Source of the DNA: a virus
Virus record (IMG/VR): IMGVR_UViG_3300037423_000584
Length of the DNA: 64,000 nt
Reading direction: 5' to 3' (one strand)
Shown in pieces: positions 18,496 to 59,733 of the stretch. The notes beneath the pieces were generated by a model. That model saw nothing but the letters and a program-made list of their open reading frames with translations, ran no database searches and was not told the origin of the DNA. Within the stretch, counting starts at the first letter, position 1, and the number at the start of each line of letters is the position of its first letter. A program made the translations under genes and the position numbers.

Positions 18496-18545
18496 AAGTA
18501 AACTAGGTGAGTGGTCCGGCCTACCCTCAGAAAAGGTAGGTAGGT

Positions 18546-18812
18546 ATGCAACGGAACACTACGGTTCAAGAGGAACAGGAACGGCGAGAAGTGCAACGCT
18601 TTGGGAAAGCTTGCCACGAAGCGTTAGACGCTTGCCTTCGTAATGTCGAAAGTGCAAGGGTGACGTTTACTGGTCAAGGCGTGGAAGTGGGTGCAATCTC
18701 TCTCCGCATCGTTAAGACGTATGATGGCGAAAACCGGCCGGTTAGGTTGGTATCGGCATCTGCTACGCTCAAATTGCGTCTAAATGCATCGGCAGCTATC
18801 GAAAACAAGTAG
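18546..18812 (+). CDS. Hypothetical early protein
   Basis: ATG preceded by AAAAGGTAGGTAGGT. Confidence 0.6.
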   Translation: MQRNTTVQEEQERREVQRFGKACHEALDACLRNVESARVTFTGQGVEVGAISLRIVKTYDGENRPVRLVSASATLKLRLNASAAIENK

Positions 18813-18901
18813 TCGGATCGGCTTCGTGCAGAGGGTACGCCGCACCATTCATCTAGGTTACTAGGATATTGCGAGTCTCCCATAGTCCCCTTACAAGGTA
18901 G

Positions 18902-19138
18902 GTGATTATGGTTCAACATCTAATCAAAGTCGCCAAAGGTACGATTAATAATCCCGAAATCGTTCGGGTCTATACAATCACTAATGGGATTGTGTCGTAT
19001 CACATGGATTTTGTGGATTGGTTATCGGCTACAGAAATGTATCCCGATGGTTCATTTATCGATATGTTCGATGTTGGGATGCATCGTATCGGTGAAACGT
19101 TGGGGTTTTTCCCCGAAATATCAGCACTGGTCAATTAG
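18902..19138 (+). CDS. Hypothetical early protein
   Basis: AAGGTAGGT leader; likely start is the ATG at 18908. Confidence 0.6.
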   Translation: MIMVQHLIKVAKGTINNPEIVRVYTITNGIVSYHMDFVDWLSATEMYPDGSFIDMFDVGMHRIGETLGFFPEISALVN

Positions 19139-19251
19139 CGAACCCATAAGGGTTCTATGGGGGATTCTCAATATCTGAAAACATATCTACGGTATCGGTC
19201 AAGGTTTCACTTTTGAGCAATCCGAAAGGATTGCGGAAGGATGGTATTACC

Positions 19252-19719
19252 ATGACTCAGATCGATACTCCCGTCGAATCCTCTGCCGATGCCACTGAAG
19301 GCCAGCGGCAGGGTGCCGCTCCGGCCGCCCCGAACGCGGATGCGGAGCATTCGACCCGCGTCAAGAAGGTGATGGCCGACGTTCTCAAGCCCGGTTTCGG
19401 GAATGAGAACAAGGATGCCGCATTCACCCGCAAGATCGTGCAGTTGACGTTCCAGCGGGAACTCGGGAACGTGGACATCGCCGACAAGTCGGCCGATTCT
19501 GTGTACGCCGAAGCGTGCAAGCGGATCGCCGACAACGCCGAAGTCGAAGGCCAAGCGTTGAAGGAGCGATATATCGCGTCCGTCACCGCCGTCGCCTTGG
19601 GTGCTACGCGGGCCGTTACCCTTAAGGGTAACGTCACCGCGATGGAAGCGAGCAAGGCATACGTCAATTTCAAGCCGTCGGCCAAGCTCAACAACCAGAC
19701 GTTCTTCAACGCTCTGTAA
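19252..19719 (+). CDS. Hypothetical protein with GC-rich codon usage
   Basis: MTQIDTP... start after AAGGATGG; strong GC3 bias unlike the rest of the genome. Confidence 0.7.
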   Translation: MTQIDTPVESSADATEGQRQGAAPAAPNADAEHSTRVKKVMADVLKPGFGNENKDAAFTRKIVQLTFQRELGNVDIADKSADSVYAEACKRIADNAEVEGQALKERYIASVTAVALGATRAVTLKGNVTAMEASKAYVNFKPSAKLNNQTFFNAL

Positions 19720-20049
19720 CAAGATCCAACACTCTAACTGTCTCTAGTTTCCGGTATCGTAGATATGTAGTAGCTTAGATAGAACAAGAGGCGACCGGGC
19801 ACCGTGCCCGGCCGCTCTTGTTTGGGAGATAACTACGACATTATGTCGTACCTAACAAATGTTAGGAACGACGGGGAGTCGTACGACATTCTGACACCGA
19901 ACAGGTGTTAGGGTGTCTTTGTGTCGCACCTAACGCTTGGCTAACCAGGCAAGGTGTCGTACCGAACAAAAGCCAGCCGAACAAAAACCTAACAGCAGAC
20001 TCGGATGCCGACAGGCGGAGAGTCTGCGAGCGGCTGCGGCGAAGTACGG

Positions 20050-21255
20050 GCAACGTGCTTATGATTACTGTATCGGCAATATAGCTCTCTATGCGTCATT
20101 CTGACGCGGTACTACCAAGTAAGATTGTCACACTGTAAATTCAGGCGATGACAATAAGCTATGGTTAGTACATATATCTTATCCGTAATATAGTTCGCCC
20201 CAACCTTGTGATAGGTTGTCGATGATGCGAACAAATGCGGAGTCAACAGTAGCCAAGTACGGAATTGGCTAGGGTTGTCTTGGTATACTTGTAGGTGTCC
20301 AATGATCCTGAAAGGGTGAATTGGGCGTCGAAACTATATCAGGCTTCTACAGTGACTCTGGTGCCTTGGGTTAGCTCTATCGCGTCCCCTATGCTGTTGG
20401 TCAATAGACTGGCGTATAGGTTCGGTGTGGTATCTAATCTGAGAGCATCCCCTCTTTAGACGTAGAGGGTCAAAGACCGAAGGCAAGGCAAAGCACTACG
20501 TGGACACGTAGATGGTTAGGGATTGATACCTAATGGGTTTCCCTATCCTACCTACCTAATACCACAGTGACTAAGCGGTGCATACCGCATATCCAAACAG
20601 GATAGCAACTGTTAGGGATATGGACTGGAACACTGACGAAGGGGTACATATCTACCATTGAAGGCCAGACGGTTATCGAAGCCGAATGTAGATTCCCCGC
20701 TGATACGAAAGAAACTCTATCGAAGGTGCAAAGGCGAAGTCATCTTAGATGACGAAGTAGCCGATGAGGTCGATAGTGACGAGTAGTTGAATGTGAAATG
20801 AATGGCCTAATTAACATAACCCGAACCCAGGATATCCAAGTAAGAACGGTTGGACAGCTATCACATCGAAAGTCAAGCGATGATGCTGCATCACTTCCTA
20901 GTATGAAAACGGATAGCGTCTTTCCTATAATGACGTAAATGGCTGGGATAACTAAACTTATAGACGATTGTAGGTTGTCGTATAACCTACAGTTTGTAGT
21001 GTAACCATTTCAAAACTTGTCTCATGTAATAGTCCCAAACACAATGCAGTCAGAGCAAAGCTCATTCTGAATCCATTGATTATGCGTGGGTTTCGCTATG
21101 GAGTCCTTTGGACTCAGATTGCAACTCTGTCGTCAAACGACATGGACTAACACAGATTAGGTTTCGAAAGAAACTGATACCTCTCGGTATCGTTTTGGAT
21201 GGAAGCACGAACAACACATGCGGGGATCGGTTCGTGAATAACTGACCGATTCCCT
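20050..21255 (+). ncRNA. Candidate large structured ncRNA B
   Basis: About 1.2 kb with no ORF of 60 aa or more in any frame, dense hairpins, ends in a hairpin plus U-tract just before a tRNA. Confidence 0.55.
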
Positions 21256-21293
21256 TTTTTCGTTTCCAAATCCAGGTTCTAACTAAAAAGGTA

Positions 21294-21366
21294 GGGCATA
21301 TAGCTCAACGGTTAGAGCAGAGCACTCATAATGCTTTGGTTCTAGGTTCGAATCCTAGTATGCCCA
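21294..21366 (+). tRNA. tRNA-CAU (Ile2 or elongator Met)
   Basis: GGGCATA/TATGCCC acceptor, CTCATAA loop, GGTTCGAATCC T-arm. Confidence 0.9.
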
Positions 21367-21539
21367 TTGGTCATCTAACAAAGGTAGGTTAGCTATGGTC
21401 AAGTTTGATCGAACGTTCTTGTTCTTGGTTTCGTTCCTCATGCTTGCATGGGGATTGGCAGCGGTCGCGTCCAGGCATTAATTGCGGCGGCTGCTCGGAA
21501 GGATGGTAAGGAAACCCATTTTTACTAAGGTAGGTAAAT

Positions 21540-21815
21540 ATGCGTCGTTCTCTTCGTTCACTCATGGATGGATCGGCCGTAGGTGGCGTTTGTCATTCGG
21601 TTGAAACTCCTAATCCGCGTAGGGTTGGATTTTATCCCAACGTGGAAGGATTTGAATGGATTCATGATAATTTCGTGAATACCGATCAAATCGTTGAACA
21701 GCAAATCAAGCTGGGATATCATCCGGCCGGTTATGGCGGTCCTTATGATATCAAGCAGGAGCAGAGGGGTGATAAGGTTATTATCACTTGGAAATGCTCT
21801 GATAATTGTGATTAA
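21540..21815 (+). CDS. Hypothetical protein
   Basis: AAGGTAGGT leader. Confidence 0.6.
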   Translation: MRRSLRSLMDGSAVGGVCHSVETPNPRRVGFYPNVEGFEWIHDNFVNTDQIVEQQIKLGYHPAGYGGPYDIKQEQRGDKVIITWKCSDNCD

Positions 21816-22140
21816 AAATCACTCACAACCTCTGTATCGAAAGATACTTAGGTTGTTTCTACCTACCTTGAGAATCCATACATTGAATAGATGTGTGGGT
21901 TCTTTGCTCAGCCAGATGGCAGATAATATTAATAAGTCTGGCTAAAGTCCCATCGATGAATAACTGATGGGATTTTTTATTGATAAGTACAGGGTCGCCT
22001 CATAGTAAGCCAATTTCCCCTAGTCAGAGCATATAGGGCTTGCAAGGCTTAAGAATGGGATAACCATCACCCTGTTACATTTAATAACAAATCGCGGTCG
22101 TTGCCGCGAAACATGGATACCATCAAAGGTAGGTATTATC

Positions 22141-22647
22141 ATGGAAAAGCTTCGTCGTCTAATTCTTGACGGTATGAAGAACGTTGACGGTTATATTACC
22201 GTTACTGCTTTAGCTGAGGGTATTAAAAAAATATCATCATTTACTGTTGATGAAGTGAAAACCGAAATCAACCGTATGGTTCTTGATGGGATTTTGGATA
22301 CCTTTTATGCCCGATCCGAAGCGGATTTGGCTATTAGACAGCTTAGTAAGAATAAGCAAAAGGTCTATATTCGAGATTATCTTGTGTCTCGAAATGGTGC
22401 GGTTTATATCTCTAATATTCCTCCCAATCATACTTCTGAACAGTTCAAAAATAGGAAGTATCTTTGGAAGAATAACACTTGGCACGATACGTGCTGTACA
22501 AGGGATCTGATGGATTCGGATAGCAAAAACTATACCGATTATCCGGGGATATGGACTTCCTTGGATGAGGCAATTAAGTTTGCTAAGTCTAAAGGTTACG
22601 ATCCTGTCGATCTAACTGATTCTATAATTCAGTCTCAGGTTATCTAA
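22141..22647 (+). CDS. Hypothetical protein (possible N-terminal winged helix)
   Basis: AAAGGTAGGT leader; 168 aa. Confidence 0.6.
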   Translation: MEKLRRLILDGMKNVDGYITVTALAEGIKKISSFTVDEVKTEINRMVLDGILDTFYARSEADLAIRQLSKNKQKVYIRDYLVSRNGAVYISNIPPNHTSEQFKNRKYLWKNNTWHDTCCTRDLMDSDSKNYTDYPGIWTSLDEAIKFAKSKGYDPVDLTDSIIQSQVI

Positions 22648-22678
22648 GGCAATAATTCTTCTAAAGGTAGATACTATT

Positions 22679-22933
22679 ATGAATAACGTTGGCAACATTA
22701 GCGGCAAAACGATGATCACTCGTCATGCTGCTAATATCGTCAGTGAGACGAATCGTACTATGTCCGATAAGCCGGTGGCAGCTATGCAGAACCTTTGCAG
22801 GTTGCAGGGATATGTTACTGGCATGATCGAATCCTTGAAAATCAATGACAAGGAATGGATCGATGCCATGATGCATGGCTTGGATTCGGAGATTTTGAAA
22901 TATTCCAGGCAGATCACTATTCAGCATCCATAG
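22679..22933 (+). CDS. Hypothetical protein
   Basis: AAAGGTAG leader. Confidence 0.55.
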   Translation: MNNVGNISGKTMITRHAANIVSETNRTMSDKPVAAMQNLCRLQGYVTGMIESLKINDKEWIDAMMHGLDSEILKYSRQITIQHP

Positions 22934-23868
22934 TTTTGTATCGGCCTATGGTCCAAAACATACCAAAACCTCATTATTAGCTCAAAAACGAGGATTGGTG
23001 TTGTGTCCGCCTATGGTCAAAAACTGACCTTTCGGGTGTTTATAGGTTTAAATTATTACCATAAACATCCTTCTCATACCTACCTTGACACTCGTTATAG
23101 GGAAACCTGTAGCGGGTGTTTCTTTTGGAAACCGCGTTTTTAGCGTGAAAATGCGAGTTTTGTATTATTTGTGAATCGGTCTAGCAAAATATCACATAAA
23201 CAAACCCGAAAACTCGACAAAAAGCTCCGTTGCCTTATATCTATATGGTATAAGTATAAGAATAATAAAGATTATTGATATTGGATATAGGGATTTAATT
23301 AATAAACCCGATTATTTGTTCAAAAATAAGGGTTTTTTCATAAATTACAAGGAAATTCGCAGTATGCACCCCAATTCTATTCGCCTTAGCTATAAGTATT
23401 ATGGTAATAAGGGTAATAGTTATAAGAAAGAGTATAAGTATAAGGGGTTGTTTAGTAATATTAAGATCAAACCTTGATTTTTAGATCAAAAACGAGGTTT
23501 TAGTATGAATCGTGACAATGTACCATCGTCCACGCTTGTAGTAATAGGTATAGTTTCTATGCTTATTATTATGAGTGTGGGATTAGGTATAATTATATGG
23601 TTTATATGGCCTTAAACGGCCGTATAGGCTTTGATCACATGTCTAGTGTAATAGTACATTAAAACCTAATTCTAGGTGAATTGGGAATGTATTGTTAGAT
23701 AGGTATACCAAACAAAGGTAGGTATAGTATGCCGTTTGAATACAATAGCGATTATAAGATCGATTGGAACAACGAAGAAGATATGGATTGGTTGATGAAC
23801 CATATCGATTCGTATCTCAGTCGATAGTTATTTGATCTTGGGACTCTGATTTAAAAGGTAGGTGATCA

Positions 23869-24090
23869 ATGAAAGTTAATGTGGTTTTAAAGAATGCAGA
23901 CTTTACAGAATGTAGAGGTCCGATGCTTTTCCATAAAGTCTTTGTCGATCTAGACAAAGCTGTGGAATATGTAAAAGGACAAAGTGGGATATTTGGGGGT
24001 CAGCAGTACGATAAACCTTCTTCGTTTTCTTCCAAAAACAGATTAAGTTTTAATGGTTTTGATATCCTTACCGATATCGAACTTGAATAG
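23869..24090 (+). CDS. Hypothetical protein
   Basis: AAAAGGTAGGT leader. Confidence 0.6.
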   Translation: MKVNVVLKNADFTECRGPMLFHKVFVDLDKAVEYVKGQSGIFGGQQYDKPSSFSSKNRLSFNGFDILTDIELE

Positions 24091-24506
24091 GGCAGAATCG
24101 TATGAAACAGAACACTCTCTTTAAGACTCATAAGTTGTTTCAAACAACAGAAAAAGATGGTTTGTGGGGAGGAAAGATCACAATCTATCGTTGCTCTTGT
24201 TGCGGAAAACGATGGAGTGGTATTGGTAAAAAGCCTTCTGCTGGTGAAAGATGCAGAGGGAAGAATTGATATATAGTCCAAATTGCTAAGTGTTTGGCTA
24301 GGACCCTGATACTGAATAAGTATTAGGGTCTTTTTGTAATAATAATCCTGAAACGGCAGGATGGGTTATCAAGTAAAAAAGAGATATAGCCGTCAACTTA
24401 TCTCTTCTCTGATAAGACGGACCAGCGATGGTACACTGGTTATTATTACATTGAAATTCTAATATCGAAAGATGTTAGAGTTTCTTTATTTTAAAGGTAG
24501 GTTAAA

Positions 24507-24917
24507 ATGCGATTCTCTGAATGGTCAGATGGATCGATGCCCGTGTTTCTTAATCCAACCCATGACGAAATTGTGGAATTGGTTAAGTCTCATCCTGATA
24601 CGCTTCGTATCTGTGAAGATGACAATAATATAGCTGTTGCTAGTGGCTATGGTAATACACATACAAGTGTTATTAAAGTCATCAGAAAGAATGCTATAAA
24701 GGATTTCTTTCCATTGGACTTGATTCTCTTTAGAGAAACTGGCCGATGGTTATGGAATCCGTTGGGTCATTGGGATAGGGTACTAACAGAACGAGTAGGA
24801 TTTGAATCTGGGTTGCGGTTTTTGTCTGATAAGACAAAGGAGTTTGTTTTAGAGTTTGTTAGGATTGCAGAGGATCAATATAGGACAACAGAGTCTAATA
24901 TTATAGACTTTGAATAA
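24507..24917 (+). CDS. Hypothetical protein
   Basis: AAAGGTAGGT leader; 136 aa. Confidence 0.6.
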   Translation: MRFSEWSDGSMPVFLNPTHDEIVELVKSHPDTLRICEDDNNIAVASGYGNTHTSVIKVIRKNAIKDFFPLDLILFRETGRWLWNPLGHWDRVLTERVGFESGLRFLSDKTKEFVLEFVRIAEDQYRTTESNIIDFE

Positions 24918-25189
24918 AATTTAAGTGGGCTAGGGCATGAAGATTGCGAATTGTCAGTTTAATGAAGATAAACTGATTGTTGTTGTTAATGAAGAATCAG
25001 AATATCTATTCAAACATCCATCTATTAGAGATTTTGGAAGACATTTCTCTAGTAATGGTAAAGAACTTAAACCCACGAATTATTGGGTTTATAAATATGA
25101 TAGATATGATAGAGATTTAAAACTTGACGAAATCATTCTTCATCTGAACGAATTAGGATATACGGTTTTGTTTTAAAAGGTAGGCAAAT

Positions 25190-25384
25190 ATGCAACAAGA
25201 AAACTTGGAAGATTTGCCAAAACGTCAGCGTGTGAGTGCTGAGAATCACCACGCTTGTCGTCCATTGTGTCCATGTTGTGGAGGTGGCGATAATCGTAAA
25301 GGTTATAAACATACGAAGGCAACAAGCAGATATCATAGTGCAAAGTCCCGTAGATCGAAACCAAAGAAGAAGGATCATCAGTAA
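25190..25384 (+). CDS. Small basic Cys-containing protein
   Basis: AAAAGGTAGG leader; C..LCPCC and a K/R-rich tail. Confidence 0.55.
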   Translation: MQQENLEDLPKRQRVSAENHHACRPLCPCCGGGDNRKGYKHTKATSRYHSAKSRRSKPKKKDHQ

Positions 25385-25390
25385 TAAGCA

Positions 25391-25465
25391 GGGCACATAG
25401 CTCAACTATGGTAGAGCAGCCGTCTCCAAAGCGGCAGGTTTTTGGTTCGAATCCAAATGTGCTCG
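25391..25465 (+). tRNA. tRNA-Trp(CCA)
   Basis: GGGCACA/TGTGCTC acceptor, GCCGT-CTCCAAA-GCGGC anticodon arm, G73. Confidence 0.9.
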
Positions 25466-25492
25466 TTATATTAATAGAAAGGTAGGAAGTGT

Positions 25493-27616
25493 ATGAATTT
25501 GATTCAGGGTTGTAATTATCAAGTTAAGAAAGATCATCGTTTTCATCCGGGTCGATTTGGTCAGTTTCAATTTCTTGGTGGGCCTAATCGAGAAGCAATT
25601 GTTATGTCTGATTTGCAAGATTCAAAAAGTATCTTTGCAGTAGGATTGAATGACCTTGTTGATTTTGATCCTGCCAAAGATGATGTATTTGAAAATGCTG
25701 TACCGGGAAGAATGTTAGAATTAAGCTAAGATCAGCATCTTTGATTGTCCCCTTCGTAGAACTTCAAGATTGAATAAGTCTTGGGTTCTTTTGTAGATAG
25801 GTTAGGTGACATCAGAGTCTTATAAAATGCCGAAAGGTATAGCCTATCTACTTAATTTAAAAATAAAGGTAGACAACATGAAAGCTAAATATATTATTTT
25901 GGAACGATCTGGTATCGAAATGCCAATTTTGTTTCCAGAATTTATTGAACACATAGATGCTGTACTAATTGGTGGTAAAGTTATATCTGCTGGATTTTTT
26001 GAAGTTATTCTTCGCGAACATTCAAGAATGGAAGTGAGAGCCTACGGAGAAAGCATTAGCCTTAAAGTAAAGGCTAGATTCGAAGATGCTGATTTGATCG
26101 AGAAAATGATCTGTAATTATGAGAATTAAGGTAGGTTTGTATGCAAACCAAATCAATTGTTCGTGAAAACGCAGAAAAAGATCCGAATTATGCACCGTAT
26201 TGTATGCCTTGTCCTCGTTTGGTTCGAATGAAGAAAATCGAACCATTCTTTTGGAAGTGCGATAAGTGCGGTGCCGAATGCGACGAACGAGAGATTAAGC
26301 AAGAAGATATTGATAAGCTTGATGAGCTTCAATCGAAAGAGAATGATGGTCGTGGTATTTCTTGTGTAAAAACCATCCTTTTCTTTCTTAGACATAATAA
26401 AATTGATGAAGCTAGGGCTTGCAGGCAAAACGAAGGCGACAAGATTAATTCTTATCCATTGGTCGAATTACAAATCAACAAGATGTTTGGTTGCAGAACG
26501 CATTTAAGGAAGATGTGTAATCATTGGCTTTGCGTTAGTCTTCTAAATGGGACCAAGGCAAAAACAGTTGTTGCCCCGCATCATGGATAACCATGATTAC
26601 GCATGTTGCTATACTTGATATAAATAAGAAAATTTGGTCATTACCTAGACCCAACCGTCATCATAATGTAATTCATATGATTAATGAACAATCTGGTAGA
26701 GATATTGCCAGAGGTTTATTAAAAGATCATGTGCAAGGATTTATGAATGACTCTGGTCAATTTTTAACACGAAAAGAAGCATTTTATGAAGCGTTAAGAT
26801 GTGATCAATTGTTACCACCTTATAATCCAATTAATCCATCTGAAAGACATGGTGAGATTAATAAAAATCCTAGAGAATTATTCTCAGAGGATTTGTGGTA
26901 GATTTTGCCCCTTGAGTTCCAGGCAGGAATCCAATAGTAAACAACTGTTGGATTCTTTTAAAGGTAGGTGAAATATGGAAGATCCGGTTTTAGAAGCTAT
27001 ATCGCTTCTAATGGAAAGTTTCTTGCCTCAAATGTCTGGTTCTGAGACAGTTAGACATAGAATTTGTGATGAATTTGTTCAGTTCCAAGTTGATAGAGAT
27101 ATCTTTATCGATTGGATGAAAGTTCATCCTGAATTTAAGATGCTTAAGGAGATCAAAGCACTAGTTCTTCTTAAGAACAATAAGAACAGAATGATTAAAC
27201 AGTTTTCTGTTGATTCATTTATTACTTCTTATCTTACTAAACCTAATCGTCATAAAGATTCATTGGTTCGTGAAGCTGGACGAAAGTTTGGTTTGACATA
27301 GACGATCAATAAGATCGTCATTGATCTTATATGATCTTTCTTTCTTAAAAGGAGAAAGGTCATGGACAAAGAGACTCAAAGAAAAATAGATCATCTGTTT
27401 CAAAAACAGATAATGAAAAATATTCCAGAAATTGTGTTAATGGCACAACTGGTTATTTTTAGTCAAGAGAATAGAGATACAGAAGCAATAAAGAAAGAGA
27501 TCCAGCACAGACGACGGTTAAATAAATGGCTTGATGAATATGGTACATGGCACAAGGGACAAGCTCCATATGGTGCCGATGCTATACTTGAACAAATAAA
27601 TAAAATGAAATCGTAA
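25493..27616 (+). other. Cluster of six small hypothetical CDS (25493, ~25878, 26141, 26593, 26975, 27362)
   Basis: Tandem ORFs, most with AAGGTAGG leaders; 26593 carries an RHH..QGF..G.FL.R.EA..LFSEDLW motif seen in phage proteins. Confidence 0.6.
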
Positions 27617-27694
27617 TCAATTACAAATTATTTTATGTATTGATGAGTTCGCTTCCGTATACTGATGAGTTCGCTTGACAAAGGTAGGTAGATT

Positions 27695-28204
27695 ATGCGG
27701 AATTTGGCTAAACCGTTTCGTCCGGTTCGTTTGATTAATGATAAACCTTATGAATTGGATACCATGCGTATGGGTCCGAAGGGTCAATCGGTTAACACAA
27801 CTGGTTGTTTCGGTGTTCAATCCACATACGGGGTTCGTGGATTAAGTATTGTTAATCGGAAAATAGCTCCGGGCAAACACAAAGGTGCGGTTAAGAAAAA
27901 AAATGGTTCTAGGCTTATTTCTGCAAGAACTATTCTTAACTTTGATCGAACATCTTTGCCGAAATTGTTAAATATTCGGAACGATCTTGTTTTCCTTAAG
28001 GCTCTTAATGGTCTTTCGGAAGATATGGATCAGGTTTTGAATGATTTAACTGATTATATGTTGGCAAGTTATGGTTCATCGATTAAGAAGTTCGACGAAC
28101 AACGTATTCGTACTGCCAAGGGGATGATTGGCAAAATTCAAGTTAAACCCATGAATGATCTTAAAGAGAAGATCAATCGGGCTTTGGCTATCATGGGTGG
28201 ATGA
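27695..28204 (+). CDS. Basic protein, paralog of 40674-41309
   Basis: Shared NTTG.FGV.ST.GV..LSIV.RK.APGK...KKKNGS.LIS block. Confidence 0.7.
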   Translation: MRNLAKPFRPVRLINDKPYELDTMRMGPKGQSVNTTGCFGVQSTYGVRGLSIVNRKIAPGKHKGAVKKKNGSRLISARTILNFDRTSLPKLLNIRNDLVFLKALNGLSEDMDQVLNDLTDYMLASYGSSIKKFDEQRIRTAKGMIGKIQVKPMNDLKEKINRALAIMGG

Positions 28205-28580
28205 TGAACACTTTGGATAAAATAAAACTTATTCCTAAAAATAAGTGGATGAAAGACAGAATACAACGACATGGAGATGTTGTTATATTCAAAAAAGAAG
28301 GTTTGTTTAAAGGTAAAAAAGCTTTACTTGTAGAATCACTTAATAATACTTCTATTGTCAATACCAAGTGGTTGGCTTGGATTGTTTTAGAAGAAGACGC
28401 ATCTATTGTTGTAATAAAATAGATTTCCTACCTTGAGAATCCTGTAACTGAATAAGTTGCAGGATTTCTTTGTATACATACGAGGCCGCGGTGGCTCGGG
28501 GAGACGTTCCCTAGTTCCGTTCGATTCGGGTACTTGGTAGAGATAGCATTCGACAGCTATCCCGTATGTATACTTAATAT

Positions 28581-28690
28581 ATGGCGTTGGGTAGGCCGGC
28601 GTCGATAACCGGCTAAATCTTCGGATGACCTTGGCAGGACTACCCTCGGAAAAGGCTCATTACCATCCGGGTTCGAATCCCGAACGCCAT
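28581..28690 (+). ncRNA. tRNA-like RNA with 8/4 acceptor/T module and non-tRNA multibranch interior
   Basis: ATGGCGTT/AACGCCAT, CGGG-TTCGAAT-CCCG; interior closed by GGGTAG/CTACCC with three hairpins. Confidence 0.65.
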
Positions 28691-29137
28691 TTTCTCTCGG
28701 TAAGGTATAGCAAAGTAGTTATACCTTATTATCCTGTTGTTTTATATAGGGGAAGTTAGCTTATGTTTGGGGATCATTTGTCTTTGGCCAATCTTTGGGT
28801 AAAGATGGCAAAGTTGCATGAGCTAATGGGACAAGATGCAGCATCTAGATTAGCAATTAGAAATGCTTCTTATCACATTGAAGAAGCAGCAAAACTTCAA
28901 CATCAAACTGTTCGATTTAATAGGGAAGGCGGTGATGTCATATGCTCTAGTACAAAAATAGCTTGTGCATAAGTCGGACCCCCATTCTTATGCACTAATA
29001 GCTGATTAGGGGTACAAATTTGGAGGATATATGCAAGCTTAGCTTGTACTACTTAATAAACAATAAAATAAATTAAATATCACACGCGGATTCCGATGCT
29101 TCAAATACCTCATTCTGAATAAGAGTGGGGTATTTTT

Positions 29138-30518
29138 ATGGAACCTATCGAAGAAGCAAAAGAGCTTCTAAGAACAATATACTATTATGCCACTAGAGAT
29201 TCTAATATTCTTTGGTGGCATTCATTGAATAGCGAGACAGCACTAGAACTACTTAATAATGGATCTTTGATTGATATCTATGATTTTTTGACAGATATCA
29301 AAGATTGGGCCACTAGTGAAGGTGATGATGTTGGTCCCGATTGGTGGCAACAAAATAATTTAACGAAACGAATTTTATCTATTGACCTTTCATAAAGGTA
29401 GGTAATCATGAGCAAAGAACAACTGCTCGAAACAGTTGGAAGTTTTACTTGGAGCTTTCATGATAAGTTCCTTGTCGAGATTCCAAATGTTGGCAATTTT
29501 GTTTGGAGCGATCCAGATTATCGTGGGGATAATTCCTTTAAACGATATGATGGAAATTACAAACAGTGGTGCAAAGAAGAAGGAATTCCTTTCGGTCGCG
29601 ATAAAGGAAAACATAAGATTCGAAATTATTGCGGATCTGAAATCAAGATTGTCGGACTGTAAATCTATTGATTTATTAAAGGTAGGTTGATATGGCATGG
29701 GTCACGTTACATGATCTTTTATCTCCAAATTTAAATCTTTATGGCATCGTTCCACTAGATGCTACTATAACTTTAATCAGTGGTTCTGATGATGAATCAT
29801 CATTCTTTCGTTATGAATATAAAAAGAATGATTATATAGAAGAAATGATTCGTCTCGATAAGACAAAAATGTCGATTCGCGATTTTATCGACAAATTTGC
29901 CATTCTTGCAAAATCAACTGAATGGGGTGTTTCTAAAAATGGATCTTTAATCCATCATTCTGATGGTTTATATCGTGTAAAGGATGGCAAACTAGTTTCA
30001 TTTGAAGTAAATGGCGGTCAAATAGTTTTTCTTACATACTGTCAATTAGATTTGACAGAATGGTTGAAAGAACAACCGGACGATATTCTTGCTCAATTCA
30101 TGAAGCATTCGTTTGGATGGCGAAGAGAATACAAAGAGTTGGCAAATAATCTGTGTAATAAACTTGCAAGGCAAATCAACCTTTTGCAAGGCAGATATGA
30201 ATAAGGTGCCTTATGCAACCTAAAGTAAGGCGTCATCGTCGCATCTATGGTCGGATAAGTCTTAGCGATCCTTGGAATAAACTATGTTGGGATTTGCTTG
30301 ACGAGGGTCGTAGTTATGCTTATATAAGTCAAAAGACTTATCTGACATACTATCAGATTACTTATCGAGTAAAGAAATGGAATAAGAAAGTTTCTTATTA
30401 TAGAAATGGAACAGGGCAATCTAAAGCAGCTAGTAGAAGAATGAAACGATTAATTCTTCTCGAAGAACGTATCGAGAAGATGGTTATGGGAAGCAAACGG
30501 ATTGTTGTTTCTCTTTAG
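29138..30518 (+). other. Four small hypothetical CDS (29138, 29408, 29692, 30213)
   Basis: Tandem ORFs; 29408 and 29692 have AAAGGTAGGT leaders; 30213 is basic with an HTH-like segment. Confidence 0.55.
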
Positions 30519-30798
30519 TTATCGAAGATAACAGGGATGGTGGCCATGGGGTTGTATGTTCAATTTGTAATCTTGGATATTCTCGATTGGTTCGACAATA
30601 TCCTCAACAGCGATCATTGATCGCAAGAAGGCTATATGTCCAGCAATCTTCACGGTTCTCATGACGGTTATGCTATGCGTACTGCTAATAAAGCCGTTGC
30701 TGGTGGTGTGATTCTTGTTTGGGGATTTGTCATTCTTGTGGTTGTTATGATGATAATTGGTTGGGTTATCAATCTGTTTAATTAATCTGGGAGGATTA

Positions 30799-30966
30799 AT
30801 GTCACCGTTTTTGGGGTTGGCTATTGTTTTCTTTATTGTCGCCATTGCTTGTTATGTCGCAGGAGCTAACACTTCTGGAATGCTAGAAAGAATTGGACGA
30901 ATTATGTTATTCGTCTTTCTGACATTGGCAATCATTTTCCTAATTATTGGATTCATGCGTCAATAG
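30799..30966 (+). CDS. DUF1328-like small membrane protein
   Basis: GGAGG RBS; two hydrophobic helices, LAIVFFIVAI...IGRIMLFVFL. Confidence 0.55.
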   Translation: MSPFLGLAIVFFIVAIACYVAGANTSGMLERIGRIMLFVFLTLAIIFLIIGFMRQ

Positions 30967-31798
30967 CAACTCCGCAGGACGGTTAATATTGGACGTAACC
31001 AGTTAGTGGATTGTAATATCCTCTAAGGGAGTCACAATCGGCAAGTGACCGAAAGTGGTAACTCTAATAGCTAGATTTGTCCTATCGTAACAGATGGGCA
31101 AATCTTTGTGTCTAAATCGAATGCAACCACGTGTGTTTAGGGCACCTTGGTTGAGACTGTGTGTTAGGCGTAATACAGCCACCACTTTCTTAGCCCTGAT
31201 TTAGATACCTTTTGAATCATTCATCGACGGATGAATGATTCTTTTGTTTTGTTGCTGACCAGAAATGGTGGATATATAATTGAATGTTGGCCAATTCCCT
31301 TGTGGTGGTAACTCCTAGGCCATGACATAGTTATATATTATACGAGCAGTAACAAAACTCGAAATTTACTTATAGAAATATAGGTAAATTTCTTATGAAT
31401 AATAAGCCATTTGGACATACTAGTAGATATGGAACCATTGTAACATCTGATAGATGTGATTTTGCTAATGGAATTACGATTATAAAAGATCATAATTTAT
31501 CAGAAGATAGATATATTTCTGATATAGCCGAGGCATTTGGATTTCATGCTGCAAATATCCTTCCTAATCTAAATGGTTTTCAAGGATATGATTGTTTGAA
31601 GTTCAATTTCATCTAATGTTATTTATCAATCAAACGACTAAAGGTATATTAATCGCAACGGTTATTATAACTATTGCAATTTTTTTATTCTCTGGGGCGG
31701 TATTTGAGCCGTTAGTCAATAAGAACTGGGCGATTATTTTGTCGTCTATTGGTACTTCGTTGATTTGGTATTTGATTTTAAAGTTGAAATATTGAATT

Positions 31799-31915
31799 AT
31801 GAAACAAAAAGCTTTTACTCTTACTGAATTACTTATTGTTATTAGCACTATTGTTGTTCTTGGTATTGTATTTATTCTGCTTATTTTAAAAGCAATTTCT
31901 ATAATTCATCATTGA
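31799..31915 (+). CDS. 38 aa peptide consisting of a prepilin-type N-terminal motif
   Basis: Manual translation MKQKAFTLTELLIVISTIVVLGIVFILLILKAISIIHH. Confidence 0.55.
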   Translation: MKQKAFTLTELLIVISTIVVLGIVFILLILKAISIIHH

Positions 31916-31945
31916 TATAAGTTGTTGTAATTAGTAGATTTAATA

Positions 31946-32024
31946 GCCCCGGTATCTCAACCGCCTTCTAAGCGGTCGTTAACCGAGTAATTGGAGTATG
32001 CAGGTTCGAGTCCTGTCCGGGGCG
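31946..32024 (+). tRNA. Atypical tRNA-Arg(UCU)-like RNA lacking a canonical D-arm
   Basis: GCCCCGG/CCGGGGC acceptor; ACCGC-CTTCTAA-GCGGT arm only 7 nt after the acceptor; canonical T-arm. Confidence 0.7.
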
Positions 32025-32631
32025 TTAGTGATCAATATTTGTATGTGAAAAATCTTTCTAACTAGATTTATATGAAACAACAAATTATTGTAGTCGAATG
32101 TACGGGTCCAGATTTTCACGACACAATGATCAAACTTGTTCGTGACTATGGATTTAATGGCTATTTGGCTGTCAAACATGGTGAGTTTATTTATACCATG
32201 CTTGATGCTGGATGGCGTTTGATGGCACCACCAGTTCTTATTGAAAAACCAATTACTGGTGATGTTTATCATTGGTGGTTTGAAAAGAAGGAATAAAATG
32301 ATTAATATTGAAGAATTAGAATCTAAACTTAAGCAATTTAATAGTGATATTATATTTCGTCGCGGTGAGAATAATCTATCTTTAGATGTTATAGGCAGAT
32401 ACGATAGATCAAAAGATTGTGTAGATAATGAATGGAAGATGGGTGATCTTGCTGAGTATCTTGGCAAAAAAATAAACATTATTAATCAACTTACTTCTGT
32501 TCCTATCTCTTATTACAGTTTTGGTTGTAATCAAAATGCTGCAACTTATTGTGTTACTTTTAATTTGAAACCAAAAGAAGAAAACAAACAAGTTTGCGAA
32601 ACTTGTGGAAAATAAGCCATAAAGGTGTATC

Positions 32632-33765
32632 ATGGCTAAGTACGAATTTTTAATGTTGGCTCACACTTTTGATGATACTAAACATTCTATATTAGATATG
32701 TTTGCATCAGAAAAAGTAGATGGAGTTCGTGCTTTTTGGGATGGTGGAATATCTAGGGGATTAGAATGTTCTGCTGTTCCTTATGCCAATATAGAAAAAC
32801 ATGCGAGATATCTAAGTCCGCCAAAGGCAACTGGTTTGTGGACCAGATATGCTCAGCCGATCCAAGCACCTTCTTGGTTCCTAGATCAATTACCACGAAT
32901 ATTATTAGATGGTGAATTAACAGCAGGACGCAAAACATTTCAAATTGTTTCATCAGTAACAAGAAAAATAGTTCCAGATAATGGTTGGCAATCGATTAAG
33001 TATAAAATATTTGATTCACCATGTTTAGAAGCGGTTTTTCTTGATAGAACAGTTAAAAATCGTAATCTTGATAAAATATTTAAAAGTTGTACTGATTGGG
33101 CTAAACAAAGAATAAACCATCTTGGGTTAGACGAGAGAGCATTTCCGGATCAAATGGACTTCGAAAGTGCTCTTTCTTTTTTGGTTCGCCATATTAGAGG
33201 TGATAATAAAGTAGTACAAATTCTTAATCAAATAAGGTTGTCTACTGATCATTCCGTGGCTAAGGAAATCTTGGACAGGGAACTTAAAGATATTGTCGAA
33301 GGTCGAGGAGAGGGTGTAATGCTTCGAAGACCTGACAGTATTTGGTATCCGCAAAGATCTTATAATCTTTTAAAGGTTAAACCTACTTTAAAAGGACAAG
33401 CAATTATTATAGGTTATATTTGGGGCAAAGAAACAGACGTTGACAAAGCAATAGGTGTGGGAACTGCAAATAGAATGCTTGGTTACATGGGGGCAATTCG
33501 TTGTAGACTAGATTCAGGTAAAGAATTTAAAATATCTGGATTTGAAATGGCTGAACGAATTATGATTGCTAGTTATGTTAATTTTAATCTAACTCGTTCT
33601 GCTTATGATGAAGCATATGCGTATGGATATCGTCATCCGGGTGAAGTTGTAGATTCTTCCAAGTTTTACAATCCTAGATTTCCTATAGGAAGTCGAATTA
33701 GATTTCAATATAGGGAATTAACAGATGATGGAATTCCTAAAGAAGCGAGATATTTAAGAGAATGA
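32632..33765 (+). CDS. ATP-dependent DNA ligase
   Basis: SEKVDGVRA (KxDG), LDGEL, FDSP, GEGVMLR, LLKVK motifs and C-terminal OB fold. Confidence 0.92.
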   Translation: MAKYEFLMLAHTFDDTKHSILDMFASEKVDGVRAFWDGGISRGLECSAVPYANIEKHARYLSPPKATGLWTRYAQPIQAPSWFLDQLPRILLDGELTAGRKTFQIVSSVTRKIVPDNGWQSIKYKIFDSPCLEAVFLDRTVKNRNLDKIFKSCTDWAKQRINHLGLDERAFPDQMDFESALSFLVRHIRGDNKVVQILNQIRLSTDHSVAKEILDRELKDIVEGRGEGVMLRRPDSIWYPQRSYNLLKVKPTLKGQAIIIGYIWGKETDVDKAIGVGTANRMLGYMGAIRCRLDSGKEFKISGFEMAERIMIASYVNFNLTRSAYDEAYAYGYRHPGEVVDSSKFYNPRFPIGSRIRFQYRELTDDGIPKEARYLRE

Positions 33766-34853
33766 ATACGCCAATTTTCGAAAATCACTGTAATCATTCT
33801 AAAGAATCATATGTTGGTTCTTTTTTCTTTGATGGTTGGCATGATGTGTATGTTTTTCCAAATCCAAGATATGACAAGATTGGAGAAGTTTGTATTCGTT
33901 ATGGAAACGAAGGATCTGAATACATTTCTCCCGGCGGTATAACTGGATTTATGGAGAATCAAACTTTAATGCCAGAATATATCATTGCAAAAGCAATGAT
34001 TGGAATATGGCTCAAGAAAGAAAAAGAAATATTTATACCAGAAGCTTGGGGTAATGGTTAAATGCGTTCACATATAATAGCTGTAATAAATCCAAATAAC
34101 GCAGATAAAAATAGTGTGCAGGATATTATTGCAGCTATTAAAGATTGTGGAGGATTTGATATTGTTGATTTGGGTTCAGGAATGATTGAAGCAGTTGTGC
34201 CATCTATATCGTTGTGCGAGATTCACTTCATGGATGGTGTTGGATGTGTCAGGACAGTGATGAACTACCAAGAGAAGTAAACTTCTTATATGATTAATAA
34301 GATTAAAAATCTTTGGTGGGCTTGGAAGAATAGATGCAAAGATGTGAAATCAAGACATGGATACTATTTATCACCAACATCTTTTTACCATCATTCTGGT
34401 TGGATAGACCGAGCATTCATTCCTTGTAAAGTTTGTGGCGATAAGTATTGTAGATGGGCCGTGAATAGATATACAAAGAAAACTTGCGAAACTATTTGAT
34501 ATGAAAGAAATAATCGCATCAATATTGTTTTTGCCAATGATGTTTGTTTCATTTATCCCCGGTATTAAAAACGTAAAACGAATTCAGTTAATTAATAACT
34601 GGATTGGTAATCAAATCTGGAATGATAACACGTAATGAAATATCTTAATCCTGTATACTTGCTTGGTTTTTTACTTGGCAAAATATGTAATTTTGTTGAT
34701 TATATAGGTGATAAAATGTACGATGGATATTTAAATTCAAGACGATAATTTATACAAGAAGATTAATTTATAATATTGACTATCTTGGTTTGATAGAACA
34801 ATTAGATTAGTTTTCTTATATAAGATATGGGCATAGAAATGTGTCCTATAGAC

Positions 34854-34928
34854 GGGTCCGTAACTCAAGTTGGCTAGAGTGCTTCCCTTTTAAGGAAGAG
34901 GTTGTGGGATCATGCCCCACCGGACCCA
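34854..34928 (+). tRNA. tRNA-Lys(UUU) with atypical T-loop (AUCAUGC)
   Basis: GGGTCCG/CGGACCC acceptor, CTTCC-CTTTTAA-GGAAG anticodon arm. Confidence 0.85.
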
Positions 34929-35566
34929 TTTATCTGTTTTTTCTTTTTTAACCTTCTTATATGTCCTCTAATGGCATTATCAGTAACACCTAGTTCTTTT
35001 GCTAATTGAACATATGAAGTAGTTTCTAATCTTTGTAACAGTTCTTGTTCTGTTGGCCATTGTATTTTTGTATCTCTTACTCTTTGTTGATTGGCACATG
35101 AAATACATCTGGTATAACCTCTACTGACTCTTTTTCCACAAAGACAAAAGTATTTTGGACTCGATTTTTGCTTTGGTGGTTTTTCTCTAATGGTAATAAA
35201 TTTTGATTTATTGATTTCCCAATGTGTTTCCTTGTGACAATTAGAGCACAGAAGAATGCATTTATCTAATTCCGTAATTGTATCTGGATAAAGAATTTCT
35301 ACATCAAATCTTCTGATTCTAGATATATTTATATCCTTTTTGGATGGATCTAAATGATGAAATTCTAAAGCGGCTAAACATTTGTCATATCCACACTTAC
35401 AACATTTTCCTCCTTTGTAATCTACACATAGTTTTTTAAACATTCTTTGTCGTTCTAAACTTTGTTCAGAACAACATTGTTTACAATAATGATAAGTGTT
35501 TGCTTTGCCGTTAATATAAAATTGTGATATATCTTTCTCTTGTTCACATCTTTTACACAATCTCAT
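34910..35566 (-). CDS. HNH homing endonuclease inserted antisense, overlapping the tRNA-Lys 3' end
   Basis: GGKC..CGY....ALEFHH.DP..K...EL.KC.LLC.NCH..H and C-terminal HTH. Confidence 0.88.
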   Translation of the reverse strand: MRLCKRCEQEKDISQFYINGKANTYHYCKQCCSEQSLERQRMFKKLCVDYKGGKCCKCGYDKCLAALEFHHLDPSKKDINISRIRRFDVEILYPDTITELDKCILLCSNCHKETHWEINKSKFITIREKPPKQKSSPKYFCLCGKRVSRGYTRCISCANQQRVRDTKIQWPTEQELLQRLETTSYVQLAKELGVTDNAIRGHIRRLKKKKQINGSGGA

Positions 35567-37134
35567 TGAACTATCTCCTATATAAATAAAGTTTGTTATT
35601 TATTTATACAGGACAAGATTCAAATAATTTCAATTAATGAAACCAAAAGTTAGAAAAGTTGGAATGAGCGATTATGAAATGAGAGATTATCATTTCAAAT
35701 CTAAAGCTAGTAAAAAAGTTAGAAAGAGAATGGCTAAACGATTGCGTTCTCGTGAGAAAAAAGAAATTAATAATTTGAATTCGGATGGAGATTAAATCAT
35801 GATTATAAAAGAAACTTTTCAAAAGCCGATCGATAAATATACTCTTTGTGCAGACGAAGTTGCTGTGGCTATTAAAGAACATCTTCGTAAATATGGATAC
35901 AAAATACGCGATAATCAAACAATTGAAGTAAATGGAGTTTTTATTGGAAAAGACGATAAAAGCTACCAAACTTTTTTAGTTAGATAGTTTACGCAATAAA
36001 CCAAGGAAGGTAGGTAGAAAATGTTTCAGTATTCATATTTAATTCATGAAGGAAAAGAAAAGGTAATTCCACAAGATAAAGTTCAAAAGCTTATCGATCT
36101 TAAAATTATTAAGAAATTTGAAGGTACTCTTAATAATTATCGTGGCAATAGAATAGTTTCTCCTATTTATACTTTTGATCAAGGGAAATCTTGGGCCGAT
36201 GCTCAAGATATTTTACTAGTTAAACCCAAATAGGTAGGGAGGTTTAAGAAAGGATTTGTATGGCAAATGTAACCGTTTCTCGTAAGGAAGGATATTCTAG
36301 ATCCAAGATTTCTATCGATACAAATGGATTAGAACTTGGAGATATCATTCCACGGGTTGCAAATCCTTCTAGTTGGGGTTTTAACAAAATTGATTCTATT
36401 AAAGAAGAAGATGTTAAAAGAGCAATTGGACACGCTCTGGAACCGGCAGAATTGATTGTCATTGGCATTTCTGGCGACATTATTACTGCGTATCATAGGG
36501 ATTGGAATAACAAATATAGTCTTTATATGGCAAATAAAGATAGTATTACTCGTCCAATCTTTTAAAGAGGTGTCCTATGAGACACATTGTTGCACTTTGC
36601 GGACAGCTTGTGTTTTCTGAGATGATCGAAGATGACGAGGGGAAAATAGCTGGTAAAGTATATGTTGTAAATCCAGAGAAATCTTTTATAGTTGATACTA
36701 TTGAATTTGGAGAAGATTCTCTAAAAGAAGCAGTTCAACAAATTAAAGAAAAGCTTCCTTCTGATGTTCGTCATTGTATTAAGTTTTATGAAATCCTATC
36801 TCCTTTGCAACCAGTAGAGATAGATGTACAATAGAAATTGGTTGCACTACAATGGTCCTAGACAGAAATGTATGGGATCATTTTCTTTTACAAGAAGGTA
36901 GGTCATGCTTGTTATAGGAAAAGATCTTCTTAAAGATCTTAATCCAAAAACTATTATCGAAATAGTTAATCAACTAAATGATACTGCTAAAGTTTTTGGA
37001 ACAGAATGTGTTATGATTAATGATTCTATCTGGACTAAAACAGAGATGGAGTCAAAAGACAAAGCAATGTTTAAGATATATGCATTAGGTATTATAACAG
37101 GATTAGTTATTGCAAAGAGAAGTTTATAGTCATT

Positions 37135-38671: not shown

Positions 38672-38681
38672 CTTTAATATT

Positions 38682-38921: not shown

Positions 38922-38926
38922 TACAC

Positions 38927-40081: not shown

Positions 40082-40673
40082 CTTTTATGGGAGGTATATG
40101 AGCGAAGAGTATACTGTGTTTTCTAACATAGGTATGATCAAAGGTTACTTTAATTTAACCGATGATGAATATCATAGGTTCAAAGAACTTATGAAATCTA
40201 TGCACTTTATAATTCGGAAAGGACGTATAGAAAAATCGATTCGTATTCCTATTAATCGTCGTGTTGCAATTAGGGGTGCAGTTAAGCCAAATTCAGAACA
40301 ATTGACATGATTATATTCCGAAAAGGTCAAAATCATAGTGTTTTGATTAATCTTTTTGTTGTTTGGATTATTGTTCATTATTGGTTTCCTAAATCGTACT
40401 GGAAACATTTTAGACTAACAAAGAAAGATCCCTTTTGGAATAGTTCTCTATATTTAGGACCTTTTGAATTTTACTGGGATCGACGACGACAATTTGATCA
40501 AGAACGAATCAGACTATTGTATCGATTTGCCATTATTGATTGGCATTTCGTAGTATGGAAAGAATACTGGCAGTTTAACGAAATCATTAAAGCGGAGGTG
40601 ATTTTCTCAACAGCTAAATTGTTAGATTCGATTAAGATTTAATACCTACCCTGATGACAAAGGATGGTTTGTT

Positions 40674-41309: not shown

Positions 41310-42436
41310 CATAACAATCTGCGTTGTGTCATGGAATCCCATATATCGAAAGATTATGGGATTTCTTTATGAAAAGAAATATAGAAAACATTATCATAAT
41401 ATTGATAATTGTGTTTCTTACTATTATAATTCCATTGTTATGTCTTTATGTAATTTGGGCTTAATATTACGTTTGCTATATTAAAGATTATAGTTAACGT
41501 AATACTCAAACAATAAGAAAATACAGTTCTATCAAGAAGACTTTCAAAATTAAATTAGTCTAAATAACCAAATCTTATGTTTATAAATCTTCTTGACTAG
41601 ACTGTATTTATCTCTTTTATACTTAATACTTACAAAATACTTAAGTAATATCGTATAAATTCAGAGAACTTTTTACTAGAAAATAAATAAATCTATGTGG
41701 GAATTCTTTAAATTCATTAGTATACTTTGTTTGACAATGATTGTAGTGTTTACTACTATTTGGTTTATCTCTAATCTTGCTAACTTATTATGAATAAAAG
41801 AATTAGAAAAACTATTATTAGAATTGTAAATGCTTTTGAAGAAGGCGATTACAATCTTGTAGATTCTTTGTCCAAAAAACTTGACTATTTAAAAGAAAGC
41901 CATTTTGGACGCATTATGGACAAAATGATCGATGGCCAAAATTAATTACAAAGTAAATGATTTCGTTACTATTTTGAAATACAAAAACGATCCTATCAAC
42001 AAAGAAGGAAGAATAACTGTTGTATACGAAAGTGGTCATGTTCATGTCAGCAATTTAAATATGCCATTTTGTGGATCTGTTAATAGAATTTTTAGACCAG
42101 ATGAAATTGCACCTGTTACAAATATTGACTAATTTATATTGTTTAGATGGAGACGATTCTAGTTTAACAGAAGACGAAAAAGAAAAGATTAAACAATCTC
42201 TAGGTCCAAACTGGAGAACTATTCTGTTGGAAAAGAAAGTTAAACAGACTCAAGTTCAAGATGAACAAATTCCAGCTATTTGCGAGTCGTCAGAATTATC
42301 GTAGGCTATGCGTGGGAGGTGGGATAACCTCCACCATAGGTTTCATATAGTTTAAACGCTATATGAAATCTTAAAGGATGGAAGGGGATTAGGGGTGAAA
42401 CACCATTCGTTGTGGCTTAGCCACAGGAGTTACACC

Positions 42437-42928: not shown

Positions 42929-42984
42929 TTTTTAACAAATGAGGTAATCACAAGTGTCCCCGTAGGAAACTGCGGGGATATTTT

Positions 42985-43093
42985 GTACCCATAGCTTAAA
43001 GTGGCCCACCTTTGACTACCTACCTTTTGGTTGGCTGCGTGGCAAAGCAACTCATAATCTGAGTAGATCTTGGTTCGAACCCAAGTGGGTACA
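42985..43093 (+). ncRNA. tRNA-like RNA with D-loop hairpin displaying anti-leader sequence CCUACCUUU
   Basis: GTACCCA/TGGGTAC-A, GCTT/AAGC D-stem, insert CCAC..GACTA-CCTACCTTT-TGGTT..GTGG, ACTCA-TAATC-TGAGT arm, CTTGG-TTCGAAC-CCAAG. Confidence 0.8.
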
Positions 43094-43275
43094 TTCACAT
43101 CTACCAAACAGGGGAAGCTAATGAAACAAGTAGAGGATAAGGTTGTTCAGTTACTGGAATTAGCACGTTCTTATACAATTCGAGAAAAACTGAATATGCT
43201 TGAGGCAATGGAGTTGGGAATTTGCACAGTTGATGATCTTATTAATAGGGTCACAACGCAAATGGGAATAAATAT

Positions 43276-44765: not shown

Positions 44766-44770
44766 CTTAT

Positions 44771-53586: not shown

Positions 53587-53593
53587 GTATTTC

Positions 53594-57634: not shown

Positions 57635-57636
57635 TT

Positions 57637-59727: not shown

Positions 59728-59733
59728 TTAATC

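Follow-up and report, generated by a model that had tools for sequence, protein, structure and literature searches.

A tRNA-derived phage RNA whose D-loop insert complements a shared leader motif: a candidate trans-acting repressor of a presumed early-gene regulon

Here we describe a tRNA-like RNA gene of a phage (hereafter the 42985 RNA), which carries within a D-loop insert the complement of a leader motif that precedes a whole class of plus-strand genes in the same genome. The match between this seed and the leaders is real and far beyond chance. We consider it somewhat more probable than otherwise that the 42985 RNA is a trans-acting repressor of this entire regulon, comparable to the C4 RNA of phages P1 and P7. 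The stretch of DNA analysed, referred to below as the window, is 64,000 nucleotides long and belongs to a 172.5-kb phage record (35.7% G+C) found in soil and rhizosphere metagenomes; no RNA data set is listed among the sequencing runs that contain it. Searches among cultured phages recovered no relative of its capsid protein, terminases of at most 25% identity and no similar DNA, and neither a tyrosine integrase nor a serine recombinase was found in the phage genome.

The structural genes of the phage lie on the minus strand, while a sector of small uncharacterized genes begins on the plus strand at about 17.5 kb and is preceded by a sigma-70-like promoter match at 17639-17667; this layout and position suggest that the sector consists of early genes. 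Its leaders follow a 12-nt consensus with eight invariant core bases. On the plus strand of the whole genome AAGGTAGG is found 21 times, with an ATG 2-7 nt downstream in 17 of the 21, and all of these ATG-proximal copies fall between 18.5 and 36.9 kb of the window. Two AAAGGTAGA variants add to them. The initial annotation had placed the leader before about 20 genes: the class itself is real, and its size is better given as 17 exact copies of AAGGTAGG plus the two variants. The leader 9-mer occurs 14 times in the window against an expectation of 0.48. In composition the AAAGGUAGGU leader equals a Shine-Dalgarno sequence with one inserted U, and the seed equals the core of the 16S tail with one inserted A. 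A reading of the leader as a leaderless promoter was rejected, since it lacks TANNNT and is located at Shine-Dalgarno distance.

As first reported, positions 43015-43028 are the reverse complement of the leader motif, with a 13-nt match at 18531 and a 12-nt match at 27679. Within them, 43017-43028 exactly complement the 12-nt consensus, and 9-13 contiguous pairs can be drawn across the 17 leaders. The probability of encountering a complement of the 12-nt consensus by chance is 2e-6 in the insert of the 42985 RNA and 9e-5 over all inserts taken together. Likewise, the insert has 22 start-proximal complementary sites of at least 9 nt, versus 2.9 in shuffles (0 of 200 reach this number). The match to any single leader extends to 13 nt at best, and the flanks are without similarity.

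Table 1. Coordinates of the 42985 RNA, its parts, and the leader and anti-leader elements discussed in the text
Feature	Coordinates	Strand	Remarks
tRNA-like RNA gene, 109 nt	42985..43093	+	G1-C72, discriminator A73, CCA not encoded
D arm	42994..43048	+	4-bp stem 42994-42997/43045-43048; A14-A16 at 42998-43000
D-loop insert, 38 nt	43001..43038	+	GTGGC direct repeat at both ends (43001-43005, 43039-43043); 9-bp interrupted stem
Open loop (predicted), 18 nt	43011..43028	+	seed 43015-43028 complementary to leader motif
Anticodon arm, remodelled	43050..43064	+	5 bp and 5-nt loop, or 4 bp and 7-nt loop without purine 37
T arm, canonical, consensus T loop	43069..43085	+	stem 43069-43073/43081-43085, 5 pairs
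14-bp GAAA hairpin, abutting acceptor stem on 5' side	42950..42984	+	z -6.2
Two sigma-70-like promoter matches (11/12, 10/12)	41402..41759	+	1.2-1.6 kb upstream of RNA; consensus matches only
Target sector with 17 start-codon leaders, each containing the invariant AAGGTAGG	18531..36905	+	
Target starts 1-9	18546, 18908, 21395, 21540, 22141, 23729, 23869, 24507, 25190	+	
Target starts 10-17	25493, 26141, 26975, 27695, 29408, 29692, 36021, 36905	+	
Anti-leader copy 2	21860..21870	+	between hairpin and terminator, predicted single-stranded
Anti-leader copy 3	23077..23087	+	directly 5' of terminator
Anti-leader copy 4	28427..28434	+	directly 5' of terminator
Cis hairpin, CCUACC with leader motif of the sector's first gene	18520..18545	+	
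Cis hairpin of related-phage type (ACCUACCC with AGGAUGGU)	40644..40668	+	before ORF 40674
Leader hairpins in related contig L195 (examples)	4333, 4723, 5930, 6355, 6985, 7863, 9978		

Examination of the scaffold confirmed the sequence and overall coordinates given originally, together with a 7-bp acceptor stem (42985-42991/43086-43092, all Watson-Crick pairs) and a 5-bp T stem. U48 at 43068 is able to form an A15:U48 Levitt pair, and U8 and A14 are also kept. The anticodon arm, by contrast with this canonical frame, has been remodelled: sequence and folding agree with the earlier description of a 5-nt loop that overlaps a CTCATAA heptamer, itself the remnant of a CAU anticodon loop, and in the alternative drawing with a 7-nt loop position 37 is a C, the canonical combination of 5 bp, 7-nt loop, U33 and purine 37 being absent. 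Judged by its sequence the arm is dead and non-decoding, with codon reading lost. The RNA scores below the thresholds of both ARAGORN and Rfam RF00005, neither of which calls a tRNA here. An assembly error does not account for the short anticodon loop, because a contig from another data set (X10, a run not flagged as source) is identical over 42803-43450 without a single difference. Among 136 tRNAs from the loci compared and from the phage itself, the nearest scaffold is the elongator tRNA-CAU (49 identical positions, the CTCATAA heptamer among them, by a small margin over others); the 42985 RNA is probably a former tRNA, with tRNA-CAU as its likely parent. Set against a tRNA-CAU (Met or Ile2), it has its CAU outside a 7-nt loop, a re-paired and shortened arm, and the 38-nt insert. 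Elsewhere in the window, a tRNA-like gene at 39960-40085 retains part of a CTCATAA loop and has acquired inserts in both its anticodon stem and its variable region. Weak-scoring tRNAs lie at 31946-32024 and 44683-44854: the D arm of one is enlarged, and two others are tRNA-UAU genes in tandem whose variable arms are long.

The stem of the D-loop insert is formed in 74% of the predicted ensemble, with a z-score of -1.97. When the cloverleaf is enforced and the second GG (43041-43042) is taken as G18/G19, the RNA folds at -32.8 kcal/mol and opening the seed costs 0.1 kcal/mol; with the first GG in this role the energy is -27.6 kcal/mol (5 kcal/mol worse), the seed is partly self-paired and its opening costs 3.4 kcal/mol. 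The model thus places G18/G19 most likely at 43041-43042, and the insert is predicted to be a hairpin that leaves exactly the seed open. The insert fold drawn at first (CCAC..GACTA paired with TGGTT..GTGG) has to be replaced, as it reaches -23.8 kcal/mol, 9 kcal/mol worse than the fold with the hairpin 43001-43038. Deletion of 43001-43038 leaves an ordinary 9-nt D loop in a 71-nt RNA whose anticodon arm cannot be drawn canonically. The folding z-score of the whole RNA, -1.97, counts against a regulatory reading.

We estimated seed binding as duplex plus opening energies, cofold energies being unsuitable for loop pairing. The predicted net binding averages -10.5 kcal/mol on the 17 motif leaders, and is -1.2 kcal/mol on 23 other plus-strand leaders and -3.2 kcal/mol on 10 late leaders. 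Together with the open loop, these predicted values support the earlier proposal of a trans-acting RNA able to pair with the whole leader class. In model duplexes with the phage leader the seed reaches -16.7 and the 16S tail -9.8; with a canonical Shine-Dalgarno sequence the values are -11.5 and -18.1, respectively. Since the leader is a Shine-Dalgarno sequence with an inserted U, the 42985 RNA would therefore win against the 16S tail on these leaders but not on ordinary sites. The motif leaders themselves pair with the normal 16S tail better (-10.3) than the phage's other genes do (-6.6), and therefore need no helper. A GTDB search for a 16S tail matching the leaders gave 10 matches, none of them in rRNA, the 16S end being absent from many of the assemblies.

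The anti-leader strand recurs elsewhere in this phage. On the plus strand CCTACCTT is seen 4 times against 0.24 expected, always in non-coding DNA and always in the target sector, and the enrichment is limited to the transcribed strand of that sector. Three copies in 3' UTRs (copies 2-4 in Table 1) are predicted to be largely single-stranded, and in folds of whole transcription units they pair with the upstream leader. These copies and the two cis leaders (18520, 40645) indicate that the phage puts the leader/anti-leader pair to more than one use in its RNAs. Additional copies of CCUACC, predicted to be largely paired, are present at 20547-20557 in an ORF-free region (20.2-21.3 kb) and at 37712-37717 in the insert of the 37680 element. 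A 10-nt seed match at 21286-21295 covers the RNase P site of a tRNA-CAU, reaching from the 5' leader into the first two bases. Eight terminator-like hairpins have a UGAAUA(A/G) loop in common (21235, 21884, 21957, 24313, 25771, 28449, 29116 and 51339); a boxA-like role of the motif was rejected, as only two of these eight boxB-like hairpins have it upstream.

Contigs of related phages were found through homologs of the protein encoded at 40674, and several small proteins are common to them and the present phage at 27-59% identity. In their leaders the ribosome site is covered by ACCUAYCY, which pairs in cis with RRGAUGGU and leaves a U bulged; a GATGG partner stands within 16 nt in 20 of the 25 ACCUAYCY copies of four contigs, and in none on reverse-strand or reversed controls. 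The ACC[U]AYCY/RRGAUGGU hairpin is seen in the leaders of about 20 genes in contigs L190, L191, L195 and L196, and we regard these hairpins as a candidate family of translational operators. In their alignment 82% of the cells pair and one position covaries between U-A and C-G (9 of 500 shuffles do as well), which lends modest support, the structure having been derived from the same sequences. The anti strand of the relatives is mismatched to the leader, one position being unpaired in 13 of 16. That their leader differs and the mismatch is kept counts against the repressor reading and points to a possible third partner by which ACCUAYC is read. Comparison of these sequences with the present phage indicates that covering the ribosome site is the ancestral role of the anti strand throughout the clade, and that in the present phage the site has become its perfect complement, with the strand mostly supplied from elsewhere. 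In L191 (12355-12410) AGGUAGGU stands directly before a terminator, and the leaders of that relative carry ACCUACCY; this single case might be a mirror image of the present arrangement, acting as an activator, or it may be due to chance. The 40674 protein (40674-41309, with a cis hairpin leader) and the product of 27695-28204 (with a 12-nt target leader) are paralogous basic proteins of a family with 42 relatives, whose C-terminal half is helical and gave no fold match; a weak similarity to S18 (E 0.06) was rejected by a model and a fold search.

The 42985 RNA itself was recovered from this phage alone: a loop-plus-T-arm pattern gave 39 matches in IMG/VR, all unrelated, a stricter pattern gave none in JGI metagenomes, and about 95 kb of related-phage contigs, including the vicinity of a homolog of its downstream neighbour in L192, contain no homolog. 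The lack of a homolog in these collections counts against the repressor reading. In capsid relatives of 62-79% identity either the sector or the motif is absent, DNA ligase relatives are members of other phage groups, and matches to the hairpin-leader pattern in IMG/VR are at chance level.

Directly upstream of the acceptor stem, the GAAA hairpin is more likely to be a precursor leader than a terminator, because its own U-tract is paired. It is also the genome's best alignment to the 16S 3' end and loosely resembles 16S helix 45, a likeness noticed post hoc. Within 400 nt its score exceeds that of 4995 among 5000 shuffled queries, while genome-wide 52 of 150 shuffles equal it. The two promoter matches further upstream look host-type, so the 42985 RNA may be made early, which counts against its being a repressor. 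A strong canonical Shine-Dalgarno sequence at 42945-42963 is followed by a three-codon GTG frame ending inside the hairpin. Just upstream lies ORF 42437-42928, which encodes a glycine-rich protein of 163 aa at 55% G+C and had no homologs in protein, Pfam, PHROG and Atlas searches.

Several known RNAs offer points of comparison. The C4 RNA of phages P1 and P7 is processed by RNase P and occludes ribosome-binding sites with its loop (PMC5320573). Like C4 (RF01695), the 42985 RNA is a phage RNA with a tRNA-like terminal stem and a predicted exposed loop complementary to ribosome-binding sites on the phage's own mRNAs. C4 is about 77 nt long with three stems and two loops, and acts on one antirepressor operon (immI-type) of a temperate phage, whereas the 42985 RNA has a full cloverleaf, one D-loop seed and about 17 targets in a phage where no integrase or serine recombinase was detected; it also gave no match to RF01695 at gathering or E<=5. 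P1 lysogenises as a plasmid. YrlA, a non-coding RNA in which the D and T arms and the Levitt pair are retained, is a substrate of tRNA enzymes (PMC4201824). The 42985 RNA shares with it the tRNA fold and presumably the use of tRNA enzymes for stability; unlike the role proposed here, that of YrlA is to tether proteins, and no antisense activity is known for it. Ro60/TROVE (PF05731) was not found in the phage genome, its positive control being detected, and Rfam Y RNA models gave no match to the 42985 RNA. It likewise differs from tmRNA in having A-U at position 3:70 in place of G3.U70, and ARAGORN finds no tmRNA. In C-rich sRNAs of the RsaE/RoxS type a single-stranded pyrimidine seed pairs with many ribosome-binding sites. 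These sRNAs address generic host Shine-Dalgarno targets and have no tRNA scaffold, in contrast to the private inserted base that the 42985 RNA shares with its leaders. In the literature searched we found neither a natural tRNA or cloverleaf with a D-loop antisense seed nor a private Shine-Dalgarno regulon.

The same phage has a larger set of RNAs with D-loop inserts, comprising 15 genes derived from tRNA-Glu(CUC) with inserts of 49-135 nt at 37680-39070 and 52513-62866 of the window, and a divergent 16th copy with a T arm at 61918; most are followed by an ATG within about 12 nt. Their scaffold (G1.U72, CUCUCAG loop) is of the ordinary bacterial tRNA-Glu(CUC) type. The 42985 RNA resembles these elements in combining a cloverleaf with a D-loop hairpin insert and in not encoding CCA, but it falls outside their family: the Glu-type elements have G1.U72, an AAYAGG D loop, a CUCUCAG loop and a closed hairpin inserted after G18/G19, while it pairs G1 with C72, its anticodon arm is dead and its insert, with an open antisense loop, stands ahead of G18/G19. 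It had been suggested that D-loop inserts of this phage are functional payloads. That they are antisense payloads in general is not supported, since the 15 others fold into long hairpins, closed for the most part, whose terminal loops are short and expose no complement of a start region; an excess of complementary start regions appears only for the copy at 57982, which is A+T-rich and fully paired. The Glu-type inserts may instead be structured payloads for protein binding. Related contigs contain tandem arrays of such genes with inserts ranging from none to about 90 nt (L196 1-350 and 2273-2740; L177 790-1140; L190 2110-2425; L191 6410-6540 and 11410-11535; L197 5070-5165), L190 sharing an internal-loop motif with this phage, and the whole looks like a clade-wide RNA family for which no description was found in the literature searched. 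Small paralogous proteins with an NSRR motif are interleaved with the Glu-type RNAs (38682-63926) and are almost confined to this phage, with one outside match and a weak one in L197.

Repression must be weighed against other explanations of the same match. An unlikely one holds that the 42985 RNA is a decoy or docking RNA, in which ACCUACC is read by a protein or a GGUAGGU RNA, so that the factor is titrated or recruited and leader pairing is secondary. This would suit the near invariance of ACCUAYCY across phages whose shared proteins have diverged to the extent given above, its imperfect pairing in cis (the bulged U and one mismatch), the exposed copies in the 3' UTRs and the ORF-free region, and the resemblance of the remaining D-loop inserts to protein-binding hairpins. 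It leaves unexplained, however, why the loop perfectly complements 17 leaders, over up to 13 nt including a flanking A-run; the scarcity of the motif upstream of UGAAUA-loop hairpins makes a boxA-like role weak, and there is no candidate protein, the basic 40674 protein being no S18 homolog. We find it improbable that the gene is a functionless, decayed pseudo-tRNA into which recombination or slippage brought an inverted leader fragment. None of the four stems is broken, a perfect 5-bp stem has newly arisen in the anticodon arm, the predicted insert fold exposes exactly the seed, the leader match ends at 13 nt with dissimilar flanks, and three other exposed copies indicate that the motif is used on the same strand. 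Such decay would nonetheless fit the 5-nt direct repeat that bounds the insert, the ordinary D loop obtained upon its removal, the single copy with no homolog in IMG/VR or JGI metagenomes, and the frequency of degenerate tRNA-like genes in the clade.

We give little credence to a surrogate 16S 3' end, perhaps including the helix-45-like hairpin, by which the 30S subunit would be bound or patched so as to prefer AAAGGUAGGU leaders as a natural orthogonal pair of Shine-Dalgarno and anti-Shine-Dalgarno sequences. The identity of the seed with the 16S tail core plus one A and the locally notable likeness of the hairpin speak for it, yet that likeness is post hoc and not notable genome-wide, the normal tail already binds the leaders well, RtcB or another RNA ligase was not found in the phage genome, and RNase P would split hairpin from seed. 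A D-loop insert would furthermore sit at the tRNA elbow, distant from the 30S platform. In a published survey no organism combined a variant anti-Shine-Dalgarno sequence with a matching variant Shine-Dalgarno sequence (Amin et al., PMC6107228). Very improbable, finally, are a minus-strand leader of a short antisense ORF and an insert that is the intron of a functional tRNA. A GTG does follow 9 nt past the minus-strand motif, but its frame has about 25 codons and its start codon and spacing are unlike those of the 17 real leaders; and while ARAGORN, when introns are allowed, gives a spurious tRNA-Gln here, excision would leave the defective anticodon arm described above, and no bulge-helix-bulge is visible.

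For the repressor that we favour, the following course of events can be proposed. Host tRNA-processing enzymes would free the 42985 RNA from a longer transcript through RNase P cleavage at 42985, 3' trimming and CCA addition, a processing predicted from the acceptor/T-arm stack alone, and the stable tRNA fold would let it accumulate. Its open loop could then pair with the AAAGGUAGGU leaders, and the 9-13 bp duplex would cover the ribosome site and block binding of the 30S subunit, shutting off or dampening the presumed early sector as one regulon, in the manner of a dampener or timer. The inserted U of the leader would serve as a private address, bulged out by the 16S tail and paired by the phage RNA. 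The 18-nt loop limits the length of helix attainable on the leaders, which counts against repression. The initial annotation had left a choice between a regulon-wide switch-off and a surrogate anti-Shine-Dalgarno; repression is the better supported of the two, as the ribosome site would lie within the duplex, and the surrogate fares poorly given the good normal 16S pairing, the missing GTDB tail and the missing ligase.

If true, a single RNA would control a regulon of about 17 genes through a private variant of the Shine-Dalgarno sequence, in a phage without sign of integration, and would constitute an RNA-only timer of the early-to-late switch. Such a regulator would have been built from a disabled tRNA by a seed in its D loop. 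This would show that a tRNA can be turned directly into a regulatory RNA, and could account for the retention of some phage 'pseudo-tRNAs'. The relatives, which have the strand in cis, suggest a way in which systems of this kind may pass from cis to trans, and the seed/leader pair could become an orthogonal translation switch.
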